Positions 2,109 to 33,974 of a DNA stretch of 34,282 nt are shown in pieces (the first letter of the stretch is position 1; the number at the start of each line of letters is the position of its first letter). Source of the stretch: a virus; UHGV virus genome UHGV-0276200. One strand, written 5' to 3'. A program made the position numbers and the translations under genes. The notes under the pieces are model-generated. The model was not told where the DNA came from. It did not search any database and saw only the letters and a list, made by a program, of their open reading frames with translations.

Positions 2109-3125
2109 TCACTTTAAGTTAAATAAGGGGTTTTTAGTAACAGCATCTTCAAGATGTTCTGGTGCGAAATGGGCATAGACCATTGTCATTTTTATATCTG
2201 AGTGCCCTAAAATATCTCTCAATACAAGAATATTTCCGCCATTCATCATAAAGTGACTAGCGAATGTATGGCGCAATACATGCGTGCACTGGCCCTCTGG
2301 CAAGTCAATACCTGCTCTTTTTACTGCACGCTCAAAAGATTTTCTGCATGGCGTGAATAACTTCCCTCTGTTTTTGGGGAGTTCGTGATACAGATCTTGA
2401 GATATTGGTACTGTTCTGTTTTTCTTGCCCTTTGTCTTTGTATAAGTAATTCGGTATTTCGATATTTGGTGGCCCTGAAGGTTTTCGGCTTCACTCCACC
2501 GTGCGCCGGTAGCTAAGCATATTTTTGCAATCATTAGTAGGCTCGGGCTTTGAGATTCAGCACATGCAGCCAACAGGCGCTTGATTTCGTCCACGGAAAG
2601 AAAAGCCAGCTCACCTTCGGTAATTTTGAAGGTCGGAAGTCCTGCCAGCGGGTTTGGTGCTGACCAGTGTCCTAGTTTTTTTAATGTACCGAACACCGAT
2701 GATAGATTGCGCTGTTCAAGGTTTACCGTGCGGGGCTTAACGGGCGACATAAGCGTGCCATCTTCATTTCGTACTTCACCTTTTAACCGTGCTTCGCGGT
2801 ATTTCGTAAAGTCACCGGCTGTTAGTTCTGAGGCGATGGGATCGCCTAGACCATTACAGATAATTCTAAGTTTCGCCATGAGGCGCTTGGGGTCTGCGAG
2901 TGTTTGACCATACAGGGAATACCACTGCTCAATTAATTCTGATAGGTGTCGCCGATCTTCCTTTTCCCCCAGCCATGGTTTTTTGTTCACTTCTTCCATT
3001 GTGAAGCTTTCAAAAGCAATGGCTTCGCCTTTCGTAGCAAATTGCTTACGCACGCGCTTGCCATTGCGTCCATTGGGATAGCACTCGCACAACCATTTAC
3101 CGTTTGGCTGTTTTCTGACAGTCAT
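2109..3125 (-). CDS. int: Tyrosine integrase (P2 Int family)
   Basis: 338 aa. N-terminus GRNGKRVRKQF...AFE resembles P2 Int; C-terminus has HxLRHTFAS...GH...MVYAH catalytic R/H/R/Y-type motifs. Located next to the att site. Confidence 0.9.
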   Translation of the reverse strand: MTVRKQPNGKWLCECYPNGRNGKRVRKQFATKGEAIAFESFTMEEVNKKPWLGEKEDRRHLSELIEQWYSLYGQTLADPKRLMAKLRIICNGLGDPIASELTAGDFTKYREARLKGEVRNEDGTLMSPVKPRTVNLEQRNLSSVFGTLKKLGHWSAPNPLAGLPTFKITEGELAFLSVDEIKRLLAACAESQSPSLLMIAKICLATGARWSEAENLQGHQISKYRITYTKTKGKKNRTVPISQDLYHELPKNRGKLFTPCRKSFERAVKRAGIDLPEGQCTHVLRHTFASHFMMNGGNILVLRDILGHSDIKMTMVYAHFAPEHLEDAVTKNPLFNLK

Positions 3126-3127
3126 GT

Positions 3128-3760
3128 TTAGATACTCTTTATTACTTTGACTGCACGCCCAATAACTTCCACATCATCAGTAGAGCACTCGAAAGACGCT
3201 TCATCTTGATTTACTACAATCTTATTGCCGGGAATCCGCATGATTTTTGCAACAATAATCATTCCATCAATATTGATAAGCCAGAATCCATTGCTGACCT
3301 GTTTAATTGATTTATCGATGAGATAACAATCAGTAGGGGTTTCTAAGAACATCGATTCTTCATAATCTGCAGGTAATATGCTGTGGTCTAGGAAAATCTC
3401 TTCATCAATACTGAGTTGTCCATTCTCCAGGGTTCCTTTAGGAATAGCTGGAGTTATGAGTTTGGATAACGGTTTAATTGCTTGTTTGTTCTCATTATGA
3501 GAACTTTTCTCAGGCTCAGCTCCTCCTTTCATGCTTCCCTGTCCTGTAGCTAACCAAAGCAACGAAACACCGGTTTCTAGTGCGCACTGAATTATCCAGT
3601 CAGCAGGAAAGCTGTCACGTAACACTCTGTTTGCCATAGTGCTTTTTGAGACATTCAGGTGCTCGCTTAATGCCTGCTTAGTTGTGAATCCATAAGCCTC
3701 AAGCAGCCTTTCAATAGCTGCCTTACCTCCCGTATCGGAACCCATTCTGATGTTTAACAT
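3128..3760 (-). CDS. cI: CI-type immunity repressor (186-like)
   Basis: 210 aa with N-terminal HTH-like region (TKQALSEHLNVSKSTMANR...CALETGVSLLWLATGQG). Divergent from apl/cII across a promoter/operator region, as in 186. Confidence 0.75.
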   Translation of the reverse strand: MLNIRMGSDTGGKAAIERLLEAYGFTTKQALSEHLNVSKSTMANRVLRDSFPADWIIQCALETGVSLLWLATGQGSMKGGAEPEKSSHNENKQAIKPLSKLITPAIPKGTLENGQLSIDEEIFLDHSILPADYEESMFLETPTDCYLIDKSIKQVSNGFWLINIDGMIIVAKIMRIPGNKIVVNQDEASFECSTDDVEVIGRAVKVIKSI

Positions 3761-3773
3761 TGGTAATCTCCAT

Positions 3774-3802
3774 TTGACAATCTTGAATCAAGATCGTAAT
3801 GT
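3774..3802 (+). promoter_or_regulatory. Putative rightward early promoter (pR-like) with embedded operator palindrome
   Basis: -35 TTGACA (3774-3779), 17-bp spacer, -10 TAATGT (3797-3802). Perfect 6-1-6 palindrome TCTTGA-A-TCAAGA at 3781-3793 inside the spacer. About 80 bp upstream of apl. Confidence 0.5.
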
Positions 3803-3881
3803 CTTCATGTCTCTTGATGTGAGAGTTTAAGAGACGGGCTAAAACGAACTAACACGCACACAAAGTAAGAGATACTGCACT

Positions 3882-4124
3882 ATGAGTACTGATATTTCAA
3901 TTCGTGTACCAAAAGAGATGGCTACGCCTGCAGAGTTCGCAGAGTGGGAGGGTATTTCCCGCGGCTCTGTTTACCAAAAAATTCACCATGGTCAACTTGC
4001 TAAGTACATGGTCAAGAAAGAAAAAAACAAAGGTCGCGTAAGCCTGCGTTATCTGATGTACAAAACCGATCAGGTCCGTGAATCCCTCGGTCATTCCAAC
4101 TTCCGAGTCATTGTTGGTAAGTAA
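3882..4124 (+). CDS. apl: Cox/Apl-family excisionase and transcriptional regulator
   Basis: 80 aa; first rightward gene opposite cI. Segment PAEFAEWEGISRGSVYQKIHHGQL resembles the HTH region of P2 Cox. Confidence 0.6.
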   Translation: MSTDISIRVPKEMATPAEFAEWEGISRGSVYQKIHHGQLAKYMVKKEKNKGRVSLRYLMYKTDQVRESLGHSNFRVIVGK

Positions 4125-4157
4125 GTTCAATTATGGGAACTTTCTAAGGGGGGCACC

Positions 4158-4667
4158 ATGTTTGATTACAAGATTTCCAAACATCCGCATTTCGATGAAG
4201 CCTGTAGGGCTTTTGCACTGCGCCACAACCTGGTGCAACTGGCAGAACGTGCAGGCATGAATGTGCAGATTCTGCGGAACAAGCTGAACCCAGCTCAACC
4301 TCATTTATTAACTGCACCAGAAATCTGGTTGCTTACCGATCTGACTGAAGATTCAACGCTGGTAGATGGTTTTCTGGCTCAGATTCACTGCCTGCCATGT
4401 GTACCGATTAATGAGGTGGCAAAAGAGAAACTGCCACATTACGTCATGAGTGCAACCGCAGAGATCGGGCGTGTTGCTGCAGGTGCGGTATCTGGCGATG
4501 TAAAAACCAGTGCAGGTCGTCGTGATGCTATCAGCAGCATTAACTCTGTAACACGACTGATGGCGCTGGCTGCTGTTTCATTGCAGGCCCGTTTACAGGC
4601 TAACCCTGCGATGGCGAGTGCAGTTGATACCGTGACTGGCCTCGGTGCTTCATTCGGTTTGCTGTGA
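4158..4667 (+). CDS. cII: CII-like lysogeny establishment regulator (186 CII family)
   Basis: 169 aa, the same length as 186 CII, in the canonical position after apl. Good RBS (aaggggg) before the ATG. Confidence 0.7.
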
Positions 4668-4674
4668 GGTGCTT

Positions 4675-4875
4675 ATGCTGACGAAAGAACCATCATTTGC
4701 ATCGCTGCTGGTAAAACAAAGTCCGGCAATGCACTACGGTCACGGCTGGATAATGGGTAAGGATGGTAAACGCTGGCATCCGTGCCGTTCACAAGATGAA
4801 TTGCTGGCAGAACTATCAACGAAAAAACGGGGGAACAAATGGCTATTGAAGGCGCTGCGGCGACTGTTCCATTAA
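4675..4875 (+). CDS. Small hypothetical early protein
   Basis: ATG at 4675 preceded by GAGGTG, directly after the cII stop. The track ORF 4645 is an N-terminal over-extension. Confidence 0.4.
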   Translation: MLTKEPSFASLLVKQSPAMHYGHGWIMGKDGKRWHPCRSQDELLAELSTKKRGNKWLLKALRRLFH

Positions 4876-4975
4876 GCCCCGGCGAACGCCTGAATGGACT
4901 TAATCACATTGCGGAATTAAGGGCGAAAGTTTTGGCCTTAATATTGAGTCAGAGCTTGAGCGGTTTATTAAAGAT

Positions 4976-5179
4976 ATGCGTGATCCACGGGATATCAATA
5001 ATGAACAAAATAAACGGGCACTGGCTGCCATATTCTTTATGGCAAAAATTCCAGCTGAACGTCATAGCATCAGCATTAGTGAGCTGACCACTGATGAAAA
5101 GCGGGAGTTGATTAAAGCAATGAATCATTTTCGTGCAGTGGTGAGCTTATTTCCAAGACGGCTAACCATGCCGAATTAA
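4976..5179 (+). CDS. Small hypothetical early protein (possibly the 3' part of a frame-disrupted gene)
   Basis: 67-aa ORF with a protein-like composition. The upstream overlapping ORF 4839..5087 in another frame has a plausible N-terminus but a junk-like C-terminus. Confidence 0.3.
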   Translation: MRDPRDINNEQNKRALAAIFFMAKIPAERHSISISELTTDEKRELIKAMNHFRAVVSLFPRRLTMPN

Positions 5180-6561: not shown

Positions 6562-8972
6562 CTCATGCCGATATGAACAACTGCTGCGGCTTTAACGAGG
6601 CTGCCGCAGCATTCTCATGGAACAGCCCGAAAAAGGCCATTAACCCTTATCTGGACCCGGCGGAAGTTGCGCCGGTTTCTACGCTTTCAAACCTGATCAC
6701 TCTGTACGCTGCCGATAACGAGCAGGAACAGTTGCGCCGCGAGGCACTGAGTGATCAGGTCTGGGAGCGTTATTTCTTTAATGAATCACGTGATCCTGTC
6801 CAGCGCGAAATGGAGCAGGATAAGCTCATTAGCCGGGCAAAGCTGGCGCATGAGCAGCAGCGTTTTAATTCAGACATGGTCATTCTGGCGGACGTCAACG
6901 CCCAGCCTTCCCATATCAGCAAGCCGCTGATGCAACGTATTGAATACTTCAGCAGCCTGGGCAGGCCAAAGGCTTATTCCCGCTATTTACGTGAGACGAT
7001 TAAGCCATGTCTGGAACGACTGGAGCATGTACGCGACAGTCAGCTATCTGCATCTTTTCGCTTTATGGCAAGCCATGAAGGGCTGGACGGCCTGCTGATC
7101 CTGCCTGAAATGAGTCAGGATCAGGTGAAACGCCTGTCCACCCTGGTAGCTGCGCATATGAGTATGTGCCTTGATGCAGCTTGTGGTGATTTGTATGCCA
7201 CCGATGACGTTAAGCCAGAAGAAATCCGCAAGACATGGGAAAAGGTGGCAGCGGAAACCCTGCGTCTGGATGTCATCCCACCTGCGTTTGAGCAACTCCG
7301 TCGGAAAAGAAACCGCCGTAAACCCGTGCCCTATGAACTCATTCCGGGTTCGCTGGCGCGTATGTTGTGCGCCGACTGGTGGTATCGGAAATTATGGAAG
7401 ATGCGTTGCGAATGGCGGGAAGAGCAGTTGCGCGCTGTTTGCCTGGTCAGCAAAAAAGCATCTCCTTATGTCAGCTATGAAGCCGTGATGCATAAACGTG
7501 AGCAGCGCCGTAAGTCGCTGGAGTTTTTCCGTTCTCATGAACTGGTGAACGAAGACGGCGACACGCTGGACATGGAGGATGTGGTAAACGCCAGCAGCAG
7601 CAACCCTGCGCATCGCCGCAATGAGATGATGGCCTGTGTTAAAGGTCTGGAGCTTATCGCGGAAATGCGCGGTGACTGCGCCGTTTTCTACACTATCACC
7701 TGTCCGTCGCGTTTCCATTCCACGCTAAATAACGGCAGACCAAACCCGACCTGGACAAACGCGACGGTAAGACAAAGCAGCGATTATCTGGTCGGCATGT
7801 TTGCTGCATTTCGTAAGGCGATGCACAAAGCCGGGTTGCGCTGGTATGGCGTGCGGGTGGCTGAGCCGCATCATGATGGCACAGTTCACTGGCACCTGTT
7901 GTGTTTCATGCGCAAAAAAGACCGCCGTGCCATCACTGCATTACTGCGTAAGTTTGCCATCCGTGAAGACCGCGAGGAGCTGGGCAATAACACTGGGCCG
8001 CGCTTTAAGTCTGAGTTGATTAACCCGCGCAAAGGAACGCCGACAAGCTACATCGCGAAATATATCAGTAAGAACATTGACGGTCGTGGTCTGGCTGGCG
8101 AGATCAGCAAGGAAACGGGTAAATCTCTGCGTGATAACGCTGAATACGTGAATGCCTGGGCGTCTTTGCATCGTGTTCAGCAATTCCGCTTCTTTGGCAT
8201 TCCGGGGCGTCAGGCTTACCGTGAACTGCGATTGTTGGCTGGTCAGGCGGCAAGGCAACAGGGGGACAAAAATGCAGGTGCGCCGGTACTGGATAACCCG
8301 CGTCTTGATGCCATTCTGGCTGCTGCTGATGCTGGTTGTTTTGCCACCTACATCATGAAGCAGGGCGGCGTACTGGTTCCCCGTAAATATCACCTCATCA
8401 GAACCGCTTATGAAATCAACGAAGAGCCGACCGCCTATGGCGATCACGGCATTCGTATTTATGGCATCTGGTCACCCATTGCAGAGGGCAAGATCTGCAC
8501 TCATGCAGTGAAGTGGAAAATGGTTCGTAAAGCCGTTGACGTTCAGGAGGCGGCAGCCGACCAGGGCGCTTGCGCCCCTTGGACTCGTGGCAATAACTGT
8601 CCCCTTGCTGAAAATTTGAACCAACAAGGGAAAGACAAATCAGCTGATGGGGATACCAGAACGGAAATCACCCGCATGGATGACAAGGAATTGCACGATT
8701 ACCTGCACAGTATGAGCAAAAAAGAGCGCCGGGAACTGGCAGCAAGGTTACGCCTGGTTAAACCGAAACGGCGTAAAGACTACAAACAGCGAATTACAGA
8801 TCATCAGCGACAGCAGCTCGTCTATGAACTGAAGTCCAGAGGATTTGATGGCAGCGAGAAAGAGGTCGATTTACTCCTTCGCGGCGGCAGTATTCCGTCA
8901 GGAGCAGGCCTGCGTATCTTCTATCGGAACCAGCGTCTGCAGGAGGATGATAAATGGCGGAACCTGTATTAA
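6558..8972 (+). CDS. A: Replication initiation protein A (rolling-circle nickase, P2 gpA family)
   Basis: 804 aa. HUH-like motif ([10 protein letters not shown]) and tyrosine motif ([12 protein letters not shown]). Positioned after the early operon as in P2/186. Confidence 0.85.
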
Positions 8973-9064
8973 TTACGCAGGTTAACAATTCGTGCTCTTA
9001 ATAATACCAGGCATATCAGGCTGATGAGCGTAAAAAAACGTTTTACATCAGTAAGATTATTATA

Positions 9065-9084
9065 TACTGTAAATATAAACAGTG
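9065..9084. promoter_or_regulatory. LexA (SOS) box
   Basis: tactgtaaatataaacagtg matches the LexA consensus TACTGTATATATATACAGTA at 17 of 20 positions with perfect CTGT-N8-ACAG. Overlaps candidate -10 elements about 45 bp upstream of ORF 9125. Confidence 0.6.
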
Positions 9085-9124
9085 GTTATGTATACAGTGT
9101 TGCTTTGGTGTCATAGGAGGAAAG

Positions 9125-9313
9125 ATGCAGGACTATTTTTTGGAGTCTTTGAAGCTCCAGCGCATTGATTTTTTTCTTAAGCTTGTAGCGGCTAGTGAGT
9201 GTAGTGATGAAGAGAAGGGGCTGGCCCTGCAGTGGGTTTCTGAACTGACAGATGAACTCATGGCAAAAATCAGAACCCACGAATACAACCGCTCAATGGA
9301 TGTCATCAGCTGA
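9125..9313 (+). CDS. Small hypothetical protein, first gene after the LexA box (possible Tum-like antirepressor module)
   Basis: 62 aa, RBS GGAGG before the ATG. The antirepressor assignment rests on position only, by analogy with 186 tum. Confidence 0.4.
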   Translation: MQDYFLESLKLQRIDFFLKLVAASECSDEEKGLALQWVSELTDELMAKIRTHEYNRSMDVIS

Positions 9314-10840: not shown

Positions 10841-11539
10841 ATGGTTATGTTAGTGGATGACTGTCCACGATGTGGATCACAAAAAATAGCGTTTGATGTT
10901 AATGGGCTGAATTGCACTAGGGTTTACAATGCATTGGGCGGGGGTAAAACATACGAGTACGAGGTCTATTGTGTTTGCCGAGAGTGTCATAAAACGACAA
11001 TGTTTCTTTGCAGACCTTTAACGAAAAATAAAACTTTAGATGGCTATAATTGGGAAAGTGGAATATTCGGCTTAAAGGAAGTTGCAGAGGTTGTTAGGCC
11101 TATATCACCGGCAGACTTAGCAGTAGAGGAGCCACCAGAGTTCTTACCTGAGCATATCAATAGTGCATATGAGGAAGGGGCGAAATGTTTGGCTATAGGT
11201 TGTTATAATGCAGCAGCAACCATGTTTAGGCTTTGCCTTGATTATGCCACAAAAGGACTTCTTCCTGATGGGGAGCAAGGGCCTGCGCAAAAAATAAGGA
11301 GAAGCCTAGGGTTAAGAATGGAGTGGTTATTTGATAATCATCTACTGCCTGAAGCTTTAAGGGAACTAGCTGAATGCGTTAAAGATGACGGAAATGATGG
11401 AGCGCATGAAGGTATTTTGGATAAAGCTGCTGCTGAGGATCTTGAAGATTTTACCTATCTTTTTTTAGAACGGCTTTACACTGAACCTCAACGCCTTATC
11501 GAAGCCAAGACAAGGCGTGAACAAAGAAGAAACAAATAA
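10841..11539 (+). CDS. Hypothetical cargo protein: N-terminal zinc ribbon plus C-terminal DUF4145-like domain
   Basis: 232 aa; CPRCGS...CVCRECHK gives four Cys. C-terminal helical region with GNDGAHEG and the following acidic helix resembles the DUF4145 signature as recalled. Strong RBS GGGAGGAG. About 42% GC. Lies between cos and the Q stop. Confidence 0.6.
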   Translation: MVMLVDDCPRCGSQKIAFDVNGLNCTRVYNALGGGKTYEYEVYCVCRECHKTTMFLCRPLTKNKTLDGYNWESGIFGLKEVAEVVRPISPADLAVEEPPEFLPEHINSAYEEGAKCLAIGCYNAAATMFRLCLDYATKGLLPDGEQGPAQKIRRSLGLRMEWLFDNHLLPEALRELAECVKDDGNDGAHEGILDKAAAEDLEDFTYLFLERLYTEPQRLIEAKTRREQRRNK

Positions 11540-19933: not shown

Positions 19934-20464
19934 TTACGCTCTTAATAAACTTAAATAACTTTTTATGCTTTGGCAAAAAGGGAAAAGGTCTATTTTAATT
20001 TTCCAGTTTTTTTTGTTTTGAACCCCAGAAGCAATAATAGAACCGTCCCAATATTTTATTCCATTTTTGCCGGTCTTTTTTGTTAACTCAAAACTTAATG
20101 CGTGAATAATTTTATTGCAGCATTCGCGTATAGAATCTTTAACATGACCATCTATAACAAAAAGTATATTTTCATGTTCTTCAAATGCTTCTTTCTCAGG
20201 TGAGTAATCTGGGTTCCACTCATGTTCACTAGTGTCTTGGAGAATTCGTAGTTTTGTACAAAGGCTAATAAGATTGTTGCTAATGGTATATTCCAACCAT
20301 CCGTTGTACGATAACTCCTCCATTTCAAATTCAGTTACTATAGAACCATCATATACTTTCTGTGTGGAATATATACGCTGTAAATAAAATTCAGATGAAC
20401 AGCATAATTGCTCAATTATTCTTGCGTGTTCTTCTATAGCGTAATAATCAATTGGATGGCTCAT
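19934..20464 (-). CDS. Hypothetical AT-rich moron protein between S and V
   Basis: Antisense to the late operon. ATG at 20464 (MSHPIDYY...) preceded by a GAAAGG RBS. Stop lies 5 bp from the S stop. No domain recognised. Confidence 0.5.
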   Translation of the reverse strand: MSHPIDYYAIEEHARIIEQLCCSSEFYLQRIYSTQKVYDGSIVTEFEMEELSYNGWLEYTISNNLISLCTKLRILQDTSEHEWNPDYSPEKEAFEEHENILFVIDGHVKDSIRECCNKIIHALSFELTKKTGKNGIKYWDGSIIASGVQNKKNWKIKIDLFPFCQSIKSYLSLLRA

Positions 20465-20495
20465 TCTTTTACCTTTCTTTGATTGGAATTGTATT

Positions 20496-20513
20496 TGTGT
20501 CATTTACCACACA
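20496..20513. promoter_or_regulatory. Ogr-type late promoter activator site (TGT-N12-ACA) upstream of V
   Basis: tgtgtcatttaccacaca, about 47 bp upstream of the V start. Confidence 0.45.
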
Positions 20514-22389: not shown

Positions 22390-22987
22390 TCTGCTGCCAC
22401 CGGGTTCAACTTCACTGGAGCGCCGACTGGCGCAAACCTGTAGCGGGATTTCTGATCTGCAGGTGCCGCTGCGTGACTTGTGGAATCCGGCTACCTGTCC
22501 GGTCAGCTTCCTGCCTTATCTCGCCTGGGCGTTCTCTGTGGATCGCTGGGACGAGGGCTGGACAGAAAGCGTCAAACGCCAGGTAGTGAAGGATGCTTTT
22601 TATATTCATCAGCATAAAGGAACTACCAGTGCCGTGCGGCGGGTGGTGGAACCGTTCGGATTCCTGATCCGCATTATTGAGTGGTGGCAGACCGGAGAAA
22701 CACCGGGCACGTTTCGCCTGGATATCGGCGTGCAGGACCAGGGCATCACTGAAGATACCTATCTGGAACTTGAGCGGCTGATAAGCGATGCCAAACCATG
22801 TAGCCGTCACATGATCGGCATGTCCATCAATCTGCAGACCAGCGGTCCGCATTGGGTGGGGGCCGCCAGCTATCTTGGCGAAGAAATCACGATCTATCCG
22901 TATATCAACGAAACAATTATTTCCGGCGGCACCGCGCATGAAGGCGGGGCGGTCCATGTTATTGACACAATGAGAGTGAATCCATGA
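22382..22987 (+). CDS. I: Baseplate protein I
   Basis: 201 aa in the I position, overlapping the J stop and H start. Confidence 0.8.
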
Positions 22988-24405
22988 GCACAAAATTTTA
23001 TACCCTGCTGACGGATATTGGCGCGGCGAAACTTGCCAGCGCCGCCGCGCTCGGTGTGCCGCTAAAAATTACCCATATGGCGGTGGGCGATGGCGGCGGA
23101 ACATTGCCAACGCCGGACGCCAAGCAGACAGCATTGGTAAATGAGAAACGCCGGGCTGCGCTGAATATGCTCTATATCGACCCGCAGAACAGCAGCCAGA
23201 TTATTGCTGAACAGGTGATCCCTGAAAACGAGGGCGGTTGGTGGATACGTGAAGTGGGCCTGTTTGATGAGTCCGGGGCATTGATTGCCGTGGGCAACTG
23301 CCCGGAAAGCTATAAGCCGCAACTGGCTGAAGGCAGCGGGCGTACCCAGACCGTGCGCATGGTGCTGATTACCAGCAGCACGGACAATATCACCCTGAAA
23401 ATCGACCCTGCCGTAGTGCTGGCAACCCGCAAGTATGTGGATGACAAGGTACTGGAGCTGAAGGTGTACGTGGATGATCAGATGGCAAAACATCTTGCCG
23501 CACCGGACCCGCATTCACAGTATGCACCCAAAGAAAGTCCGACGTTTACCGGGACACCAAAAGCGCCAACTCCAGCGGCAGGGAATAACACCACGCAGGT
23601 TGCGACCACCGCGTTTGTTCAGGCGGCACTGACGGCTCTTATTAATGGTGCGCCAGCCACGCTGGACACGCTGAAAGAAATAGCCGCAGCCATTAACAAT
23701 GATCCGAATTTCAGTACCACCATTAACAATGCGCTGGCACTGAAAGCGCCGTTGTCGAGTCCGGCACTCACCGGAACGCCAACAGCCCCCACTGCTGCAC
23801 AGTCGGTCAACAATACACAGATTGCCACCACGGCTTTTGTGAAATCGGCGATTGCAGCAATGGTAGGTTCTGCACCTGCGGCACTGGATACACTGAACGA
23901 ACTGGCGTCGGCGTTGGGGAATGATCCGAACTTTGCCACGACAATGCTTAATGCGCTGGCAGGTAAACAACCGCTGGACAATACGCTGACTAATTTGAGT
24001 GGAAAGGATGTCGCTGGTCTTCTCGCATACCTTGGTTTGGGAGAAGCGGCAAAACGGGACGTGGGAACAGGGGAAAATCAGATACCGGATATGGTTTCAT
24101 TTAGTGGTGTGAGGGATTTTTATGGAAAACAACTTTTGCCAGGAGGGTTGATACTCCAGTGGCTGACGATTCCATCAAGTGCAGCAGTCAAAGCTGTAAC
24201 ACTGGATAATGGTAATTATCAGCTGTCAGGCTATAAATGGCCCCAGTCATTTGGTGTCCTGTTTGCTGTGTTTGCCACAAAAGTTTCTGGCTCGACTAAC
24301 GAAGCATACGCAATCTCAGTTAATCGTCACTCTACCGATGTAATTGTCACCTGGAATGCCCGTAAGGCTGATGATGTCCATATTTTAGGAATTGGGAAAT
24401 TATGA
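22984..24405 (+). CDS. H: Tail fibre protein H (constant N-terminal part plus currently expressed variable C-terminus)
   Basis: 473 aa; a collagen-like repeat region followed by a C-terminal receptor-binding part that begins at the inversion crossover (about 24032). Confidence 0.85.
24020..24045. other. Left inversion crossover site (gix/hix-like, 26 bp)
   Basis: TTCTCGCATACC-TT-GGTTTGGGAGAA matches the Mu gix consensus recalled from memory at 18 of 26 positions; inner half and core are identical to the right site in inverted orientation. Confidence 0.55.
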
Positions 24406-24821
24406 AAATGAAATGGTCCCCATCTGTTCAGGGATTTTTCTCTGAAAACAACAGCGATATTCCCGATGATGCTTTCGATATTGAAGATGCTCTTTATTAT
24501 GAACTTATGAATGGTCAGAGTACGGGGAAAATTATTATCAATAGCCCGGATAACTACCCTGTACTTACTGAATATCCAGCGAAGACACATGAACAGGAAA
24601 TAGCTGAAGCGGAGGGAATGAAAAATATACTTATTGAACAGGCCAACGATTATATGAACAGTAAACAATGGCCTGGTAAAGCGGCTATTGGCCGGCTGAA
24701 AGGTGAGGAACTGGCACAATATAATTTGTGGCTGGATTACCTGGACGCACTGGAACTGGTCGATACTTCCGGTGCGCCAGATATTGAATGGCCTACACCT
24801 CCGGTAACTCAGGCCAGCTAA
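24402..24821 (+). CDS. G: Tail fibre assembly protein (P2 gpG / Tfa family)
   Basis: 139 aa. N-terminus and C-terminal motif [12 protein letters not shown] are paralogous to the minus-strand tfa' copy. Confidence 0.75.
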
Positions 24822-25188
24822 TCTCAGGAGCCGTCGAAGTGTCGACGGCTTTTACTTCTTTTTTGTAGTCCATCCAGGCAGATAGTTTTTCTTTATCTGT
24901 ACTGCTGATATCACCAAGCATTAATTCCACCCGCCAGTCAGCTGTGACATTATCGGCATGAGCAAGTAACTGCATTCGCTGATTTTCAGCACGTGCGACA
25001 TAATCAATCGCCGGAGATTTCAGTACCGGTAAACCATTTTCATCTGACGTGATTAATTTCCCCCCTTCCTGCTGTCCGGCAATTAATTCATTGTATAAGT
25101 CTGTACTTATCTCAACAATGTCAGCAGGCATGTCGCTGTTTATACCATCAAAGAAAAAACCATTAGTCGATTTTGAGAAATAAATCAT
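24793..25188 (-). CDS. Alternative tail fibre assembly protein (tfa'), on the inverted arm of the segment
   Basis: ATG at 25188 (MIYFSKSTNGFFFDG...) parallels the G N-terminus; C-terminal [12 protein letters not shown] is conserved. The track start at 25218 is a TTG. Confidence 0.65.
   Translation of the reverse strand: MIYFSKSTNGFFFDGINSDMPADIVEISTDLYNELIAGQQEGGKLITSDENGLPVLKSPAIDYVARAENQRMQLLAHADNVTADWRVELMLGDISSTDKEKLSAWMDYKKEVKAVDTSTAPEISWPELPEV
24830..24865 (+). terminator. Possible terminator hairpin downstream of G, lying inside the 3' coding end of tfa'
   Basis: GCCGTCGA-AGTG-TCGACGGC (8-bp stem) followed by TTTTACTTCTTTTTTG. Confidence 0.3.
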
Positions 25189-25196
25189 AGATATAC

Positions 25197-25563
25197 CTAT
25201 ACACCGATTGCTACCCAAAAACAGGACCTTTCATATTTGACAATTTCTCCCTGAGATATACCGCCAACAATTATATAGAACTGTGATTTGCTGATATCAG
25301 AACAGTTCGCTATGCCCATTGCAGATATACCAGCCACCGACGTTGTATGTGGCACAGCCAACAGCGCAAGTGAACGATTTGGGAATGTTACCGGGTAAGT
25401 CACCGTATAGTTTGATGCTCCACTGACAATACCCCACTGAATAATCAGACCTGAAGGGAGTTTTTGAAAACCCGTTGATGAAAGTGAACTGGCAAACGCC
25501 GCCATATCCGGAATTTGGTTTTGCTCGTTACCCACATTTCGTTTTGCCGCTTCTCCCAAACCA
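25197..25563 (-). CDS. Alternative tail fibre C-terminal segment (Hv'), with no own start; fused in frame to constant H after inversion
   Basis: The minus-strand frame reads ...[21 protein letters not shown]..., sharing GLGEAAKR and the same codon phase with H at the crossover. Confidence 0.6.
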
Positions 25564-25576
25564 ACGTTTATGAAAA
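25551..25576. other. Right inversion crossover site (gix/hix-like, 26 bp)
   Basis: TTCTCCCAAACC-AA-CGTTTATGAAAA matches the reverse gix consensus at 17 of 26 positions; core dinucleotide AA is complementary to TT at the left site. Confidence 0.55.
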
Positions 25577-25631
25577 TGCAGAGATAACGGCTAACTGGCA
25601 TCATCTCCGGTTTTTATTCAGGGGGATGATC

Positions 25632-26198
25632 ATGCTTATTGGCTATGTACGCGTGTCAACAAATGACCAGAACACCGATTTGCAACGTAATGCACTGAAC
25701 TGCGCGGGATGTGAGCGGATTTTTGAGGATAAAATCAGTGGCACTAAGTCCGACAGACCGGGGCTGAAAAAGCTGCTCAGGACACTATCGGCAGGAGACA
25801 CGCTGGTTGTCTGGAAGCTGGACAGGTTGGGGCGCAGTATGCGGCATCTTGTTACGCTGATAGAGGAGTTGCGCCAGCGTGGTGTGAATTTCCGAAGCCT
25901 GACTGACAGTATTGATACCAGTACCCCAATGGGCCGTTTCTTTTTTCATGTCATGGGTGCCCTGGCTGAAATGGAACGCGAACTGATAGTTGAACGTACC
26001 AGGGCAGGGCTGGCTGCAGCTCGTGCCAAAGGCAGAGTAGGTGGACGCCGTCCTAAGTTGACCACCGAACAGTGGGCACAGATTGGGCGTTTACTCGAGG
26101 CCGGAGAATCAAGACAGCGTATTGCACTGATTTTTGATGTGGGTGTTTCCACAATTTATAGAAAATTTCCGGCAAATAAGAGTAATGAATCCCCCTGA
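25632..26198 (+). CDS. gin: Serine DNA invertase (Gin/Hin/Cin/Pin family)
   Basis: MLIGYVRVSTNDQNTDLQRNAL...VVWKLDRLGRSM...FFHVMGALAEMERELI is near-identical to Mu Gin across the catalytic domain, with a C-terminal HTH. The track ORF 25515 is over-extended. Confidence 0.92.
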   Translation: MLIGYVRVSTNDQNTDLQRNALNCAGCERIFEDKISGTKSDRPGLKKLLRTLSAGDTLVVWKLDRLGRSMRHLVTLIEELRQRGVNFRSLTDSIDTSTPMGRFFFHVMGALAEMERELIVERTRAGLAAARAKGRVGGRRPKLTTEQWAQIGRLLEAGESRQRIALIFDVGVSTIYRKFPANKSNESP

Positions 26199-26246
26199 AT
26201 CAGCATTATTTTGATTATCCCTGCAAGTAGACAAATACCGTCATTT

Positions 26247-26264
26247 TGTGTGAATAACGGTACA
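26247..26264. promoter_or_regulatory. Ogr-type late promoter activator site (TGT-N12-ACA) upstream of FI
   Basis: tgtgtgaataacggtaca, about 77 bp upstream of the FI start. Confidence 0.45.
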
Positions 26265-26340
26265 ACTGCGCTTAGCTGTTTGTCAGGCACAATCACTTCA
26301 ACATAGGGCGAAGCCTAATCCAATCAGGAGGTTCGCCACT

Positions 26341-27513
26341 ATGGCTCAGGATTACCACCACGGGGTGCGCGTTGTTGAAGTCAACGAAGGCACCCGATCC
26401 ATTACCACGGTGAGCACCGCCATCGTGGGCATGGTCTGCACGGGCGATGATGCCGATGCAAAAATGTTTCCTCTTAACAAACCTGTGCTGATCACTGATG
26501 TGCTGACTGCCAGCGGTAAAGCGGGTGAGTCCGGCACGCTGGCCCGTTCGCTGGATGCCATCGCTGACCAGGCAAAACCCGTGACCGTTGTTGTGCGTGT
26601 GCCGCAGGGTGAAACGGAAGAAGAAACCACGACCAATATCATCGGCGCAGTGACTGCTGAAGGTAAAAAAACAGGCATGAAAGCTCTGTTATCTGCCCAG
26701 TCACAGCTCGGCGTTAAACCGCGCATTCTCGGCGTGCCAGGTCACGATAACAAAGCCGTTGCGACTGAGTTGCTGAGCGTGGCGCAAAGCCTGCGTGGGT
26801 TTGCTTACCTGTCAGCGTATGGCTGCAAGACGGTACAGGAGGCGATCACTTACCGTGAAAACTTCAGCCAGCGCGAAGGAATGCTGATCTGGCCCGACTT
26901 TACTGGCTGGGACACGGTGCTGAATGCCGAAGCAACGGCATATGCCACCGCCCGTGCACTTGGTCTGCGTGCCAAAATTGATGAGCAGACCGGGTGGCAC
27001 AAAAGCCTGTCCAACGTGGGCGTGAACGGTGTCACCGGAATTTCTGCAGATGTGTTCTGGGATCTGCAGGACCCGGCAACCGATGCAGGTCTGCTGAACC
27101 AGAACGACGTCACCACGCTTGTGCGTAAAGACGGTTTCCGCTTCTGGGGTTCCCGCTGTCTGAGCGATGATCCGCTTTTTGCCTTCGAAAACTACACCCG
27201 CACGGCGCAGGTGCTGACGGACACAATGGCAGAAGCACACATGTGGGCGGTGGATAAACCGCTTAACCCGTCGCTGGCCCGCGACATTATCGAAGGTATC
27301 CGCGCCAAAATACGCAGCCTGGTCAGTCAGGGCTATCTCATTGGTGGTGATTGCTGGCTGGATGAGTCGGTGAACGACAAAGACACGCTGAAAGCCGGAA
27401 AACTCACCATCGACTATGACTACACGCCAGTGCCGCCACTTGAAAATCTGATGCTGCGCCAGCGCATCACCGATCAGTACCTGGTGAATTTCGCCAGCCA
27501 GGTCAGCGCGTAA
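26341..27513 (+). CDS. FI: Contractile tail sheath protein (P2 gpFI)
   Basis: 390 aa (P2 FI is about 396); AGGAGG RBS. Confidence 0.9.
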
Positions 27514-33472: not shown

Positions 33473-33496
33473 AACCTGCTACGGCAGGTTTTTATT
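33473..33496. terminator. Bidirectional terminator hairpin between convergent ogr and the WYL-BRCT gene
   Basis: AACCTGC-TACG-GCAGGTT (7-bp stem) followed by TTTATT on the plus strand; placed just after both stop codons. Confidence 0.5.
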
Positions 33497-33974
33497 CATC
33501 TGGGATCTCACCCGTTTCAAGAAAATGTATAAAGCCAGGCTCATCTATGATGATAGTGCCTTTCATCCTGGCTGCCGATACTTTTGATGGGCCTGCATTG
33601 TAACCGCAACAGAGCATCTGAAGGTTTTGGGTTACAGATGTTCTTACCGTTAATCCTTGTTCATTCGCCTTATCAACCAACCTTTCTTTATCTGCTTTCT
33701 TAAATCCGGTGAAACACACATCGAATGTATTTTTTTTCGGACCTGACTGCTTAGTGAGATGTGAGTAGTTTTCGGGGAGGAATGACGCGCATTCCTGAAT
33801 GGCTTGTTCTTGTGAATCGTATTGTTTAAGAATGCGGTCTTTTCGGAAGGTTTTTATTCGATCGGTGTTCTTACAAATGCCCTGTATGTGATTTTCGCTA
33901 TAACTGATGCTCTGTATTGAGTGAACACCGATACGACCATTTGCATTGATGTAAACAAAGTGAAGTTCTTCCAT
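33492..33974 (-). CDS. Hypothetical cargo protein: N-terminal WYL-like domain fused to C-terminal BRCT domain
   Basis: 160 aa. N-terminus YINANGRIGVHSIQSISYSENHIQGICKNTDRIKTFRKDRI fits the WYL pattern (...R.FR.DRI). C-terminus VCFTGF...KERLVDKANEQGLTVRTSVTQNLQMLCCGYNAGPSKVSAARMKGTIIIDEPGF aligns with the BRCT domain of NAD-dependent ligase LigA. AGAGG RBS; about 42% GC. Confidence 0.6.
   Translation of the reverse strand: MEELHFVYINANGRIGVHSIQSISYSENHIQGICKNTDRIKTFRKDRILKQYDSQEQAIQECASFLPENYSHLTKQSGPKKNTFDVCFTGFKKADKERLVDKANEQGLTVRTSVTQNLQMLCCGYNAGPSKVSAARMKGTIIIDEPGFIHFLETGEIPDE

Follow-up and report, generated by a model that had tools for sequence, protein, structure and literature searches.

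The tail-fibre region of this prophage raises the question of whether a single phage can display either of two fibre tips, exchanged by inversion of a DNA segment between two crossover sites. The window analyzed here, a stretch of 34,282 nucleotides, is Cartapus, a P2-like (Fels-2-like) prophage found in E. coli LF82 and assigned in its RefSeq record (NC_070909) to Peduoviridae, Elveevirus. The original prediction placed the switch in a P2-like tail module, and this was corroborated both by the ORF map, in which the genes follow the P2-type tail order V-W-J-I-H-G...FI-FII-E-E'-T, and by the RefSeq annotation, which lists homologues of P2 gpV, W, J, I, FI, FII, E and T. Cartapus is a complete, inducible prophage that makes virions, and no host or indicator strain for it was found (PMC9928086); the same paper (Misson et al. 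2023) mentions neither the invertase nor any inversion. From the results presented below, we consider it very probable that an invertase switches the tail fibre of Cartapus between two states, as in the Mu G, P1 C, e14 P and Fels-2 systems.

The 1.5 kb segment was predicted to be flanked by perfect 25-bp inverted repeats, and these were located at 24032-24056 (TTGGTTTGGGAGAAGCGGCAAAACG) and, as the reverse complement, at 25540-25564. No other perfect inverted repeat in the window is as long; 30 shuffled sequences gave maxima of 12-19 bp, and analytically about 5e-7 perfect inverted repeats of at least 25 bp would be expected. Similarity between the repeats reaches 75 nt at 79%. A gix-like 26-bp crossover site is present at each end. 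The left site, TTCTCGCATACC-TT-GGTTTGGGAGAA, at 24020-24045 on the plus strand, has its TT core at 24032-24033 and can be aligned to P1 cixL, to Mu gix and to the sites of Fels-2. The right site, TTTTCATAAACG-TT-GGTTTGGGAGAA, lies at 25551-25576 on the minus strand, with its core appearing as AA at 25563-25564 on the plus strand, and its outer half-site is near-identical to its counterpart in the right site of Fels-2. The complementary TT/AA cores are therefore where they were expected, but the sites are not wholly contained in the repeats, as had been claimed: the 25-bp repeat takes in the core and inner half-site plus another 11 bases of the interior, and omits the outer half-sites, which match each other at 7 of 12 positions. 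The two sites are inverted relative to each other, with TT in each when read toward the interior of the segment. An identical, non-palindromic 2-bp core in two inverted, imperfectly symmetric 26-bp sites is what characterizes the Din family of invertases, and both sites fit the pattern xxxxCxxAAACC-NN-GGTTTxxGxGAA common to the cix, gix and Fels-2 sites. The 14-mer TTGGTTTGGGAGAA of the left site also borders segments of e14 and of enteropathogenic E. coli (EPEC) that flip in culture. We found no third crossover site, since the whole window contains just two matches to this 14-mer when up to two mismatches are allowed. A shufflon-like system of multiple inversions with three or more sites, such as p15B Min or the three-site P2-like locus of EPEC, was rejected on this count.

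The sequence between the two cores begins within H, the gene annotated as the tail fibre protein in NC_070909. The constant part of H, codons 1-350 (22984-24033, plus strand), lies outside the invertible segment and is read from the upstream late operon; its product matches the Pfam Phage_tail_fib N-terminal domain over residues 1-150 (E = 2.8e-65), as well as PHROG tail-fibre families. In the window orientation, H continues into variable tip 1, of 123 amino acids (24034-24405, plus strand), which is the tip expressed in this state. Tip 1 has a C-terminal match to phrog_2557 and a below-threshold match to Gp53-like_C (E = 0.0028), and yielded no significant match in the PDB. It is followed by the gene for its Tfa-type chaperone (P2 G/Tfa; 24402-24821, plus strand; Pfam Caudo_TAP, E = 3e-22; phrog_188, E = 1e-50), which overlaps the H stop codon by 4 nt. 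The second set lies on the minus strand. Variable tip 2 (25197-25562; 121 amino acids plus the stop codon) matches Pfam Gp53-like_C (E = 2.2e-15), and its only PDB match is a weak one to a putative tail fibre protein (4MTM, E = 7.7e-5); the structure searches pointed to no receptor for either tip. Its chaperone gene, tfa' (24793-25188; Pfam Caudo_TAP, E = 2.2e-24; gp21 in NC_070909), is convergent with the tip-1 chaperone gene. In the window orientation, tip 2 has neither a promoter nor an N-terminal part, and tfa' is silent. The two tips are 60% identical over the first 43 amino acids, beyond which they do not align, and the two chaperones are 33% identical.

When positions 24034-25562 (1,529 bp) were flipped in silico, an in-frame fusion resulted, H', with 471 amino acids compared to the 473 of H. 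The 350 constant residues were kept, and the last 123 amino acids of H were replaced with 121 other residues. Both chaperone genes are inside the segment. The anticipated in-frame exchange of roughly 120 C-terminal amino acids of H, together with the cognate chaperone (G versus tfa'), is thus what the sequence encodes, and a constant N-terminal fibre outside the segment, joined in frame to either of two C-termini that each have their own chaperone, is the arrangement typical of Mu G and P1 C.

The flipped state occurs in other genomes. E. coli G3 matches the in-silico flipped sequence at 100% over 2,601 nt and five further genomes match it at 98.3% or higher, giving a count of 14 genomes in the window orientation and 6 in the flipped one. 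In two of the flipped genomes, G3 and N24, the fused H' is annotated by PGAP as 'phage tail protein'. Over 14,601 bp, an exact flip between the repeats and one SNP are all that separate N17 from N24, two closely related CSF isolates. In a sister prophage of strain ATCC 8739, whose invertase is 98.4% identical to that of Cartapus, the flip is the sole difference between two assemblies (NC_010468 and NZ_CP033020) across 10,925 bp. The locus type is therefore not confined to a single orientation: the Cartapus cassette is found both ways round, with breakpoints at the crossover sites, in genomes other than LF82 itself.

These comparisons also bear on how the flip arises. Homologous recombination by RecA between the inverted repeats, with the neighbouring invertase irrelevant, could draw on a perfect 25-bp repeat set within 75 nt of 79% similarity. 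However, identity at the flip junctions in ATCC 8739 is just 13 bp (TTGGTTTGGGAGA), starting with the TT core, and the exchange must therefore have taken place inside the crossover site. Thirteen base pairs fall far short of the length required for efficient RecA recombination. Moreover, the repeats are canonical 26-bp invertase sites, and identical sites reach a flip equilibrium of 40-50% in culture (PMC4272514), far too fast for homologous recombination between such short repeats. Taken together, this makes the RecA explanation extremely unlikely.

It might also be that the Cartapus locus in LF82 is a frozen relic, in which the sites and the gene are intact, the rate of flipping is negligible, and the orientations seen elsewhere are old inherited states. 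All three independent LF82-derived records (NC_011993, NZ_CP082771 and NC_070909) are in the same orientation, although a minority orientation would not show in a consensus assembly. A sigma-70 scan of 23900-26400 detected no promoter consensus ahead of the invertase gene, which would agree with a silent locus, but the scan gave no overall excess of promoter-like sites and is uninformative either way. Against this stands an intact invertase reading frame with all of its key residues, whose product is the same, at 100% identity, as in the flipped genome G3. This intact invertase, the N17 and N24 isolates, with hardly any other difference between them, and the presence of both states in the single strain ATCC 8739 argue for recent and frequent flips. 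We therefore regard a frozen locus as distinctly improbable, and an invertase-driven switch that is active in LF82 itself as the likely state of affairs.

The adjacent gene was predicted to encode an invertase close to Gin. It does so: an intact ORF at 25632-26198 on the plus strand, beginning 55 bp past the right site, encodes a serine DNA invertase of 188 amino acids of the Gin/Cin/Pin/Hin/Fin family (Pfam Resolvase, E = 2e-53; HTH_7, E = 1e-15), which aligns without gaps to the structure of Gin (PDB 3UJ3, E = 8e-93). Among named relatives, Fels-2 Fin is the closest (86% identity), followed by P1 Cin (79%) and Mu Gin (75%). The protein has the N-terminal catalytic domain with the Ser9 nucleophile and the C-terminal helix-turn-helix that are expected of a Din-family member, and retains S9, R42, K46, K47, R50, Q150, R153 and L154. 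Enhancer-dependent invertases are set apart from resolvases by the Hin residues K47, K/R48, K/R51, Q151, R154 and L155 (PMC3798978), which correspond to positions 46, 47, 50, 150, 153 and 154 in Gin numbering; at these positions, the Cartapus invertase has the same residues as Gin and Cin.

Whether this gene product or another does the work is a separate matter, and flipping could be catalyzed wholly or partly in trans by a different Din-family invertase in the genome. There are precedents: an EPEC Mu-like segment, which has the same 14-mer sites and keeps only a 31-codon invertase remnant, still flips to 60:40 in culture (PMC4272514), and the e14 segment is also inverted by an enzyme encoded elsewhere, PinQ of the Qin prophage (PMC12529663). 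In Cartapus, however, the adjacent gene is intact, and at the level of similarity detected by megablast the invertase region occurs once in LF82. Catalysis in trans is thus unlikely, if somewhat less so than the alternatives above, and the adjacent invertase is the best candidate for the enzyme.

Invertases of this family act together with Fis at a recombinational enhancer, and a putative enhancer could be placed at 25650-25721 (plus strand), within the 5' end of the invertase gene, as the positional homologue of that of P1. The P1 record annotates an enhancer at nt 19-90 of cin, and 56 of its 72 bases (78%) are identical in the candidate, but the conservation of this stretch is not independent evidence, because it codes for the highly conserved N-terminus of the invertase. 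Two 15-mers of the form G-N13-C, at nt 22-36 and 71-85 of the invertase gene, are kept in Cartapus, Fels-2 and Mu, whereas the first of them ends in A rather than C in P1 and in the EPEC P2 remnant. The centre of the first 15-mer is about 96 bp from the right core. By analogy with these systems, the Cartapus switch probably depends on Fis and the enhancer.

The same analogy, chiefly with Gin and Hin, suggests how the switch would operate. Dimers of the adjacent serine invertase would bind both 26-bp sites and, together with Fis bound to the putative enhancer described above, assemble an invertasome on supercoiled DNA. Ser9 would then cleave the central TT/AA dinucleotide of both sites, after which a 180-degree rotation of one subunit pair and religation of the ends would leave the 1,529 bp between the cores inverted. 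The H promoter and the first 350 codons lie outside the segment, so the same shaft is joined to either of two unrelated tips of about 120 amino acids. In each orientation, the expressed tip would have its own Tfa chaperone directly downstream, with the other tip and chaperone reversed and silent. A population of lysogens should consequently release mixed virions with two adsorption specificities, and the two orientations would be expected to differ in host range.

The switch is real but ordinary; published examples of its kind exist in Mu, P1, e14 and Fels-2, as well as in EPEC prophages that are P2-like. The nearest counterpart is Fels-2 of Salmonella LT2 (Fin = STM2702), which has the identical layout of I, H, tfa, convergent tfa', alternative H C-terminus, invertase and FI sheath. 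At the nucleotide level, the two genomes are about 82% identical over 27 kb, and the outer half-sites (TTCTCACATACC and TTTTCATAAACC) are almost alike. Inversion of the Fels-2 segment between LT2 and LT7 has been published (PMC7953296). Fels-2 differs from Cartapus in its core dinucleotide (TC rather than TT), its inner half-site (GGTTTAGGCGAA rather than GGTTTGGGAGAA), the size of its segment (about 2.7 kb, compared to 1.5 kb), and its tips and chaperones.

In Mu, as in Cartapus, the constant part of the fibre is outside the G segment, the convergent tip-chaperone pairs (Sv/U and S'v/U') are inside it, the invertase gene is just past the right site, and the sites follow the same 26-bp pattern. 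Unlike in Cartapus, the G segment is about 3 kb, a much larger portion of the fibre is swapped, the core is TC, and the tail module is Mu-type. The TT core of Cartapus is that of P1 cix and of the e14 site, not that of Mu gix. The inner half-site of P1, GGTTTAAGAGAA, matches that of Cartapus at 10 of 12 positions; the C segment, however, is about 4.2 kb, cin is on the opposite side of it, and P1 is a different kind of virus.

The P segment of e14, served by Pin, and the prophage loci of E. coli E2348/69 have a crossover sequence in common with Cartapus, AAACCTTGGTTTGGGAGAA(GG) (PMC4272514). These segments, at 1.8-1.9 kb, are close in size to that of Cartapus and contain two tips and two chaperones. 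The P2-like remnant of EPEC also has the Cartapus order of tip, tfa, tfa', tip, invertase and FI, with an invertase that is 80% identical. Flipping in clonal culture was demonstrated for e14, the EPEC Mu-like prophage and the EPEC P2-like remnant (Goldberg et al. 2014, PMC4272514 Table S1). In contrast to Cartapus, these elements are defective or belong to another phage type, their tip sequences are different, and one of the P2-like EPEC loci can adopt four states with its three sites, where Cartapus has two sites. We considered whether the tested EPEC loci were the same cassette as that of Cartapus and rejected this; sites and layout are common to both, but the tips differ.

In the Klebsiella phage Kp4845-2, the flanks are 97.6% identical to Cartapus up to window position 24046 and 95.7% identical from 25502 onwards, and between the sites the tips and chaperones are wholly different. 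The invertible segment thus appears to behave as a host-specific module. The Cartapus cassette itself also occurs in Mu-like tail modules.

A further possibility is that the bacterium, rather than the host range of the phage, is the main beneficiary, for example if a tip protein blocked receptors and excluded other phages. StfE2 of e14 provides a precedent (PMC12529663), and the open frame of the silent tip extends to 25604, where it has its own ATG. That extension, however, is in the leader region of the invertase gene and is most simply fortuitous, and H is in the late tail operon of a complete, inducible prophage that produces virions (PMC9928086). The silent tip, the invertase and a neighbouring accessory ORF had no match among the PADLOC defence models. 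A primary benefit to the bacterium is accordingly very unlikely. Equally slight is the chance that the switch serves the lysogen in addition, with one orientation, or a free-standing silent-tip ORF starting at the ATG at 25604, yielding a receptor-occupying tip that blocks other phages; such a function would resemble the recombinase-activated StfE2 system of e14 and PinQ (PMC12529663).

The tail-fibre switch matters little beyond Cartapus. For Cartapus, it means that virions should come in two fibre types, of which the published genome displays one, and searches for a host, as well as engineering, should therefore use phages locked each way. Where E. coli assemblies that are otherwise identical differ by this 1.5-kb flip, the difference is programmed variation, not misassembly or mutation. 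Finally, the presence of the cassette in both kinds of tail module and the exact replacement between the sites in the Klebsiella relative illustrate the known modular exchange of receptor-binding tips.

The invertible segment lies in Escherichia phage Cartapus (NC_070909 / OV696611; Peduoviridae, Elveevirus), a prophage of E. coli LF82. The phage record and both complete LF82 assemblies were 100% identical to the window at 23700–26300, and the LF82 coordinates, together with the published prophage boundaries, showed that the window spans the 33.4-kb prophage in full, with a few hundred flanking bases at either end. Cartapus is P2-related and near Fels-2; it shows low-level spontaneous induction and has no known indicator host (Misson et al. 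2023). That description makes no mention of an invertase or of inversion. The gene order around the segment is of the P2 type, V-W-J-I-H-G, followed by the invertase and then FI-FII-E-E'-T.

Several other ORFs in the window were noted. An ORF of 189 aa at 19934–20503 (−), on the opposite strand between the tail-completion gene S and the baseplate gene V, matched phrog_18838 (unknown function) and had no match in Pfam or PADLOC. It is missing from the same spot in the related prophages of E. coli G3, N17 and N24, and a sister prophage in ATCC 8739 has a "P-loop ATPase, Sll1717 family" gene there instead. Since the content of this spot varies between prophages, the S/V junction looks like a cargo hotspot. 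The ORF at 894–2099 (−; 401 aa), adjoining the integrase (2109–3125, −) near the prophage end, likewise had no match in Pfam or PADLOC and may be an accessory gene. A DUF4145 protein (10841–11539, +; 232 aa) matched PADLOC PD-T7-4 weakly (E = 1.2e-6); its gene, which neighbours that of the portal at the cos-proximal genome end, may have an anti-phage role. Close to the right boundary of the prophage, the ORF at 33492–33974 (−; 160 aa) gave a weak BRCT match, below the Pfam cut-off, and a weak match to PADLOC PDC-S48 (E = 1.7e-7).

The segment (24034–25562) is flanked by a perfect 25-bp inverted repeat, 24032–24056 and 25540–25564, embedded in 75 nt with 79% complementarity. No longer perfect inverted repeat occurs in the window; the longest in each of 30 shuffles was 12–19 bp, and the chance expectation for pairs of at least 25 bp is ≈5e-7. 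The left 26-bp crossover site (24020–24045, +) reads TTCTCGCATACC-TT-GGTTTGGGAGAA, and the right site (25551–25576, minus strand) reads TTTTCATAAACG-TT-GGTTTGGGAGAA. Both share their pattern with P1 cixL (CAATCCTAAACC-TT-GGTTTAAGAGAA), Mu gix (TTATCCAAAACC-TC-GGTTTACAGGAA) and the Fels-2 sites (TTCTCACATACC-TC-GGTTTAGGCGAA and TTTTCATAAACC-TC-GGTTTAGGCGAA). The original prediction had placed the 26-bp sites within the repeat; the perfect repeat and the gix-like sites are indeed present, but the outer half-sites fall outside the repeat and agree with each other at just 7 of 12 positions. A third crossover site was not found in the window, and the switch therefore has two states.

The tail fibre H (22984–24405, +) has 473 aa, with a tail-collar fibre N-terminal domain (Pfam E = 2.8e-65). 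The TT core occupies codon positions 2–3 in both reading frames, and flipping 24034–25562 in silico yielded a continuous H' of 471 aa, with 121 other residues in place of the final 123 of H. The expressed tip (tip 1) and the silent tip on the minus strand (tip 2) have in common a linker of 43 residues at 60% identity (GLGEAAKR...LP.GLI.QW), past which they do not align. Both matched the C-terminus of phrog_2557. Tip 2 is a Gp53-like C-terminal domain (Pfam E = 2.2e-15; PDB 4MTM, E = 7.7e-5), and the match of tip 1 to that Pfam family was below threshold (E = 0.0028). Each tip is followed by a Caudo_TAP chaperone gene; the two are convergent and their products 33% identical. A terminator-like hairpin (24826–24853, +), with a 12-bp stem and then a T run, lies directly past the stop codon of the expressed chaperone and within the silent chaperone gene, at its 3' end. 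The hairpin could prevent late transcription from continuing antisense into the segment's silent half.

The predicted near-Gin invertase was found next to the segment, at 25632–26198 (+), starting 55 bp past the right site. The 188-aa serine DNA invertase combines a catalytic domain of the Resolvase family with a DNA-binding HTH_7 domain, and its alignment to the Gin crystal structure (3UJ3, E = 8e-93) is gapless. Its sequence shares 86% identity with Fels-2 Fin, 80% with the invertase of a P2-like remnant in enteropathogenic E. coli (EPEC), 79% with P1 Cin and 75% with Mu Gin. Ser9 and Arg42 are retained, as are K46, K47, R50, Q150, R153 and L154, which are conserved only among Fis/enhancer-dependent invertases (McLean et al. 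2013). According to the P1 record, the Cin enhancer occupies nt 19–90 of cin; the Cartapus homologue, 25650–25721, is identical at 56 of 72 positions. It keeps two G-N13-C 15-mers, both ends of which hold in Cartapus, Fels-2 and Mu; the first, centred ≈96 bp from the right core, ends in A instead of C in P1 and the EPEC P2 remnant. Because this stretch also encodes the conserved N-terminus, we infer only a putative enhancer.

The in-silico flipped sequence was used as a query against 5,426 complete E. coli genomes. Rather than a single orientation, both were found in E. coli genomes other than LF82 (G3; N17 and N24; the ATCC 8739 sister prophage). G3 matched the flipped sequence at 100% over the full 2,601 nt in one piece, and its invertase is identical to that of Cartapus. 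Five further genomes had the flipped form at no less than 98.3% identity, and 14 had the orientation of the window. N17 and N24, cerebrospinal fluid (CSF) isolates from one sequencing project, differ as deposited at 1,022 positions in 14,601 bp; once the interval between the repeats was flipped, a single SNP was left. The ATCC 8739 sister prophage, whose invertase is 98.4% identical to that of Cartapus, carries tip 1 and its chaperone with a different second half-cassette. Two independent assemblies of the strain show it in opposite orientations, with 0 differences over 10,925 bp after flipping. Its junctions have just 13 bp in common (TTGGTTTGGGAGA, with the TT core at its start), which places the exchange inside the crossover site and speaks against general homologous recombination. 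The seawater isolates DAM and ANT, with nearly equal genome sizes, apparently have opposite orientations, according to hit tables alone. All three LF82-derived records show one orientation, so flipping in LF82 itself is something we infer.

Related loci are known to invert. Fels-2 has the same layout as Cartapus, H - tfa > < tfa' - alternative C-terminus - fin - FI, with a segment of ≈2.7 kb; published work describes the inversion of this segment between LT2 and LT7 and ascribes it to fin (PMC7953296). Goldberg et al. 2014, who sequenced clonal cultures and ran PCR on them, showed continuous flipping of several loci: the e14 segment (repeat AAACCTTGGTTTGGGAGAAGG, 51% forward), a segment of a Mu-like prophage in EPEC E2348/69 (repeat AAACCTTGGTTTGGGAGAA, 60% forward) and two P2-like loci of the same strain. 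The EPEC P2-like remnant has the Cartapus gene order: tip, tfa, tfa', tip, invertase, FI. At the EPEC Mu-like locus (L012; NC_011601.1 2746500–2754000), the segment (locus positions 2984–4894) has 14-mer sites identical to those of Cartapus, and of the adjoining invertase gene only 31 codons are left (MFIGYVRAST...; 4961–5053). Another invertase of the genome must therefore act in trans to flip this segment. Thus, sites of exactly the Cartapus sequence are proven in vivo substrates, and cross-action within the invertase family is real.

The sites, the in-frame H', the paired chaperones and the intact invertase support the interpretation of the segment as an invertible tail-fibre switch, which is real. 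It is another member of the well-known class of Gin/Cin/Pin/Hin/Fin invertase switches of phage tail fibres; such switches are already documented in P2-like prophages, and the Cartapus anatomy does not depart from the family. Klebsiella phage Kp4845-2 matches the window at 97.6% identity as far as 24046, where the left site ends, and at 95.7% from 25502 on, a stretch with the right site and invertase; in between, it has different tips and chaperones with the same type of flanking sites. In DAM (locus L011, NZ_CM129523.1; locus positions 6715–9157), the same cassette lies behind a Mu-like baseplate and tail module. The left crossover site marks the start of the homology to Cartapus, the constant part of the fibre ahead of the cassette is just ≈100 aa, and the chaperone proteins are identical to those of N17, N24 and G3. 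Because Kp4845-2 swaps the content between the sites and DAM carries the cassette in a Mu-like module, the segment behaves as an exchangeable receptor-binding module, which indirectly supports a role in host specificity.
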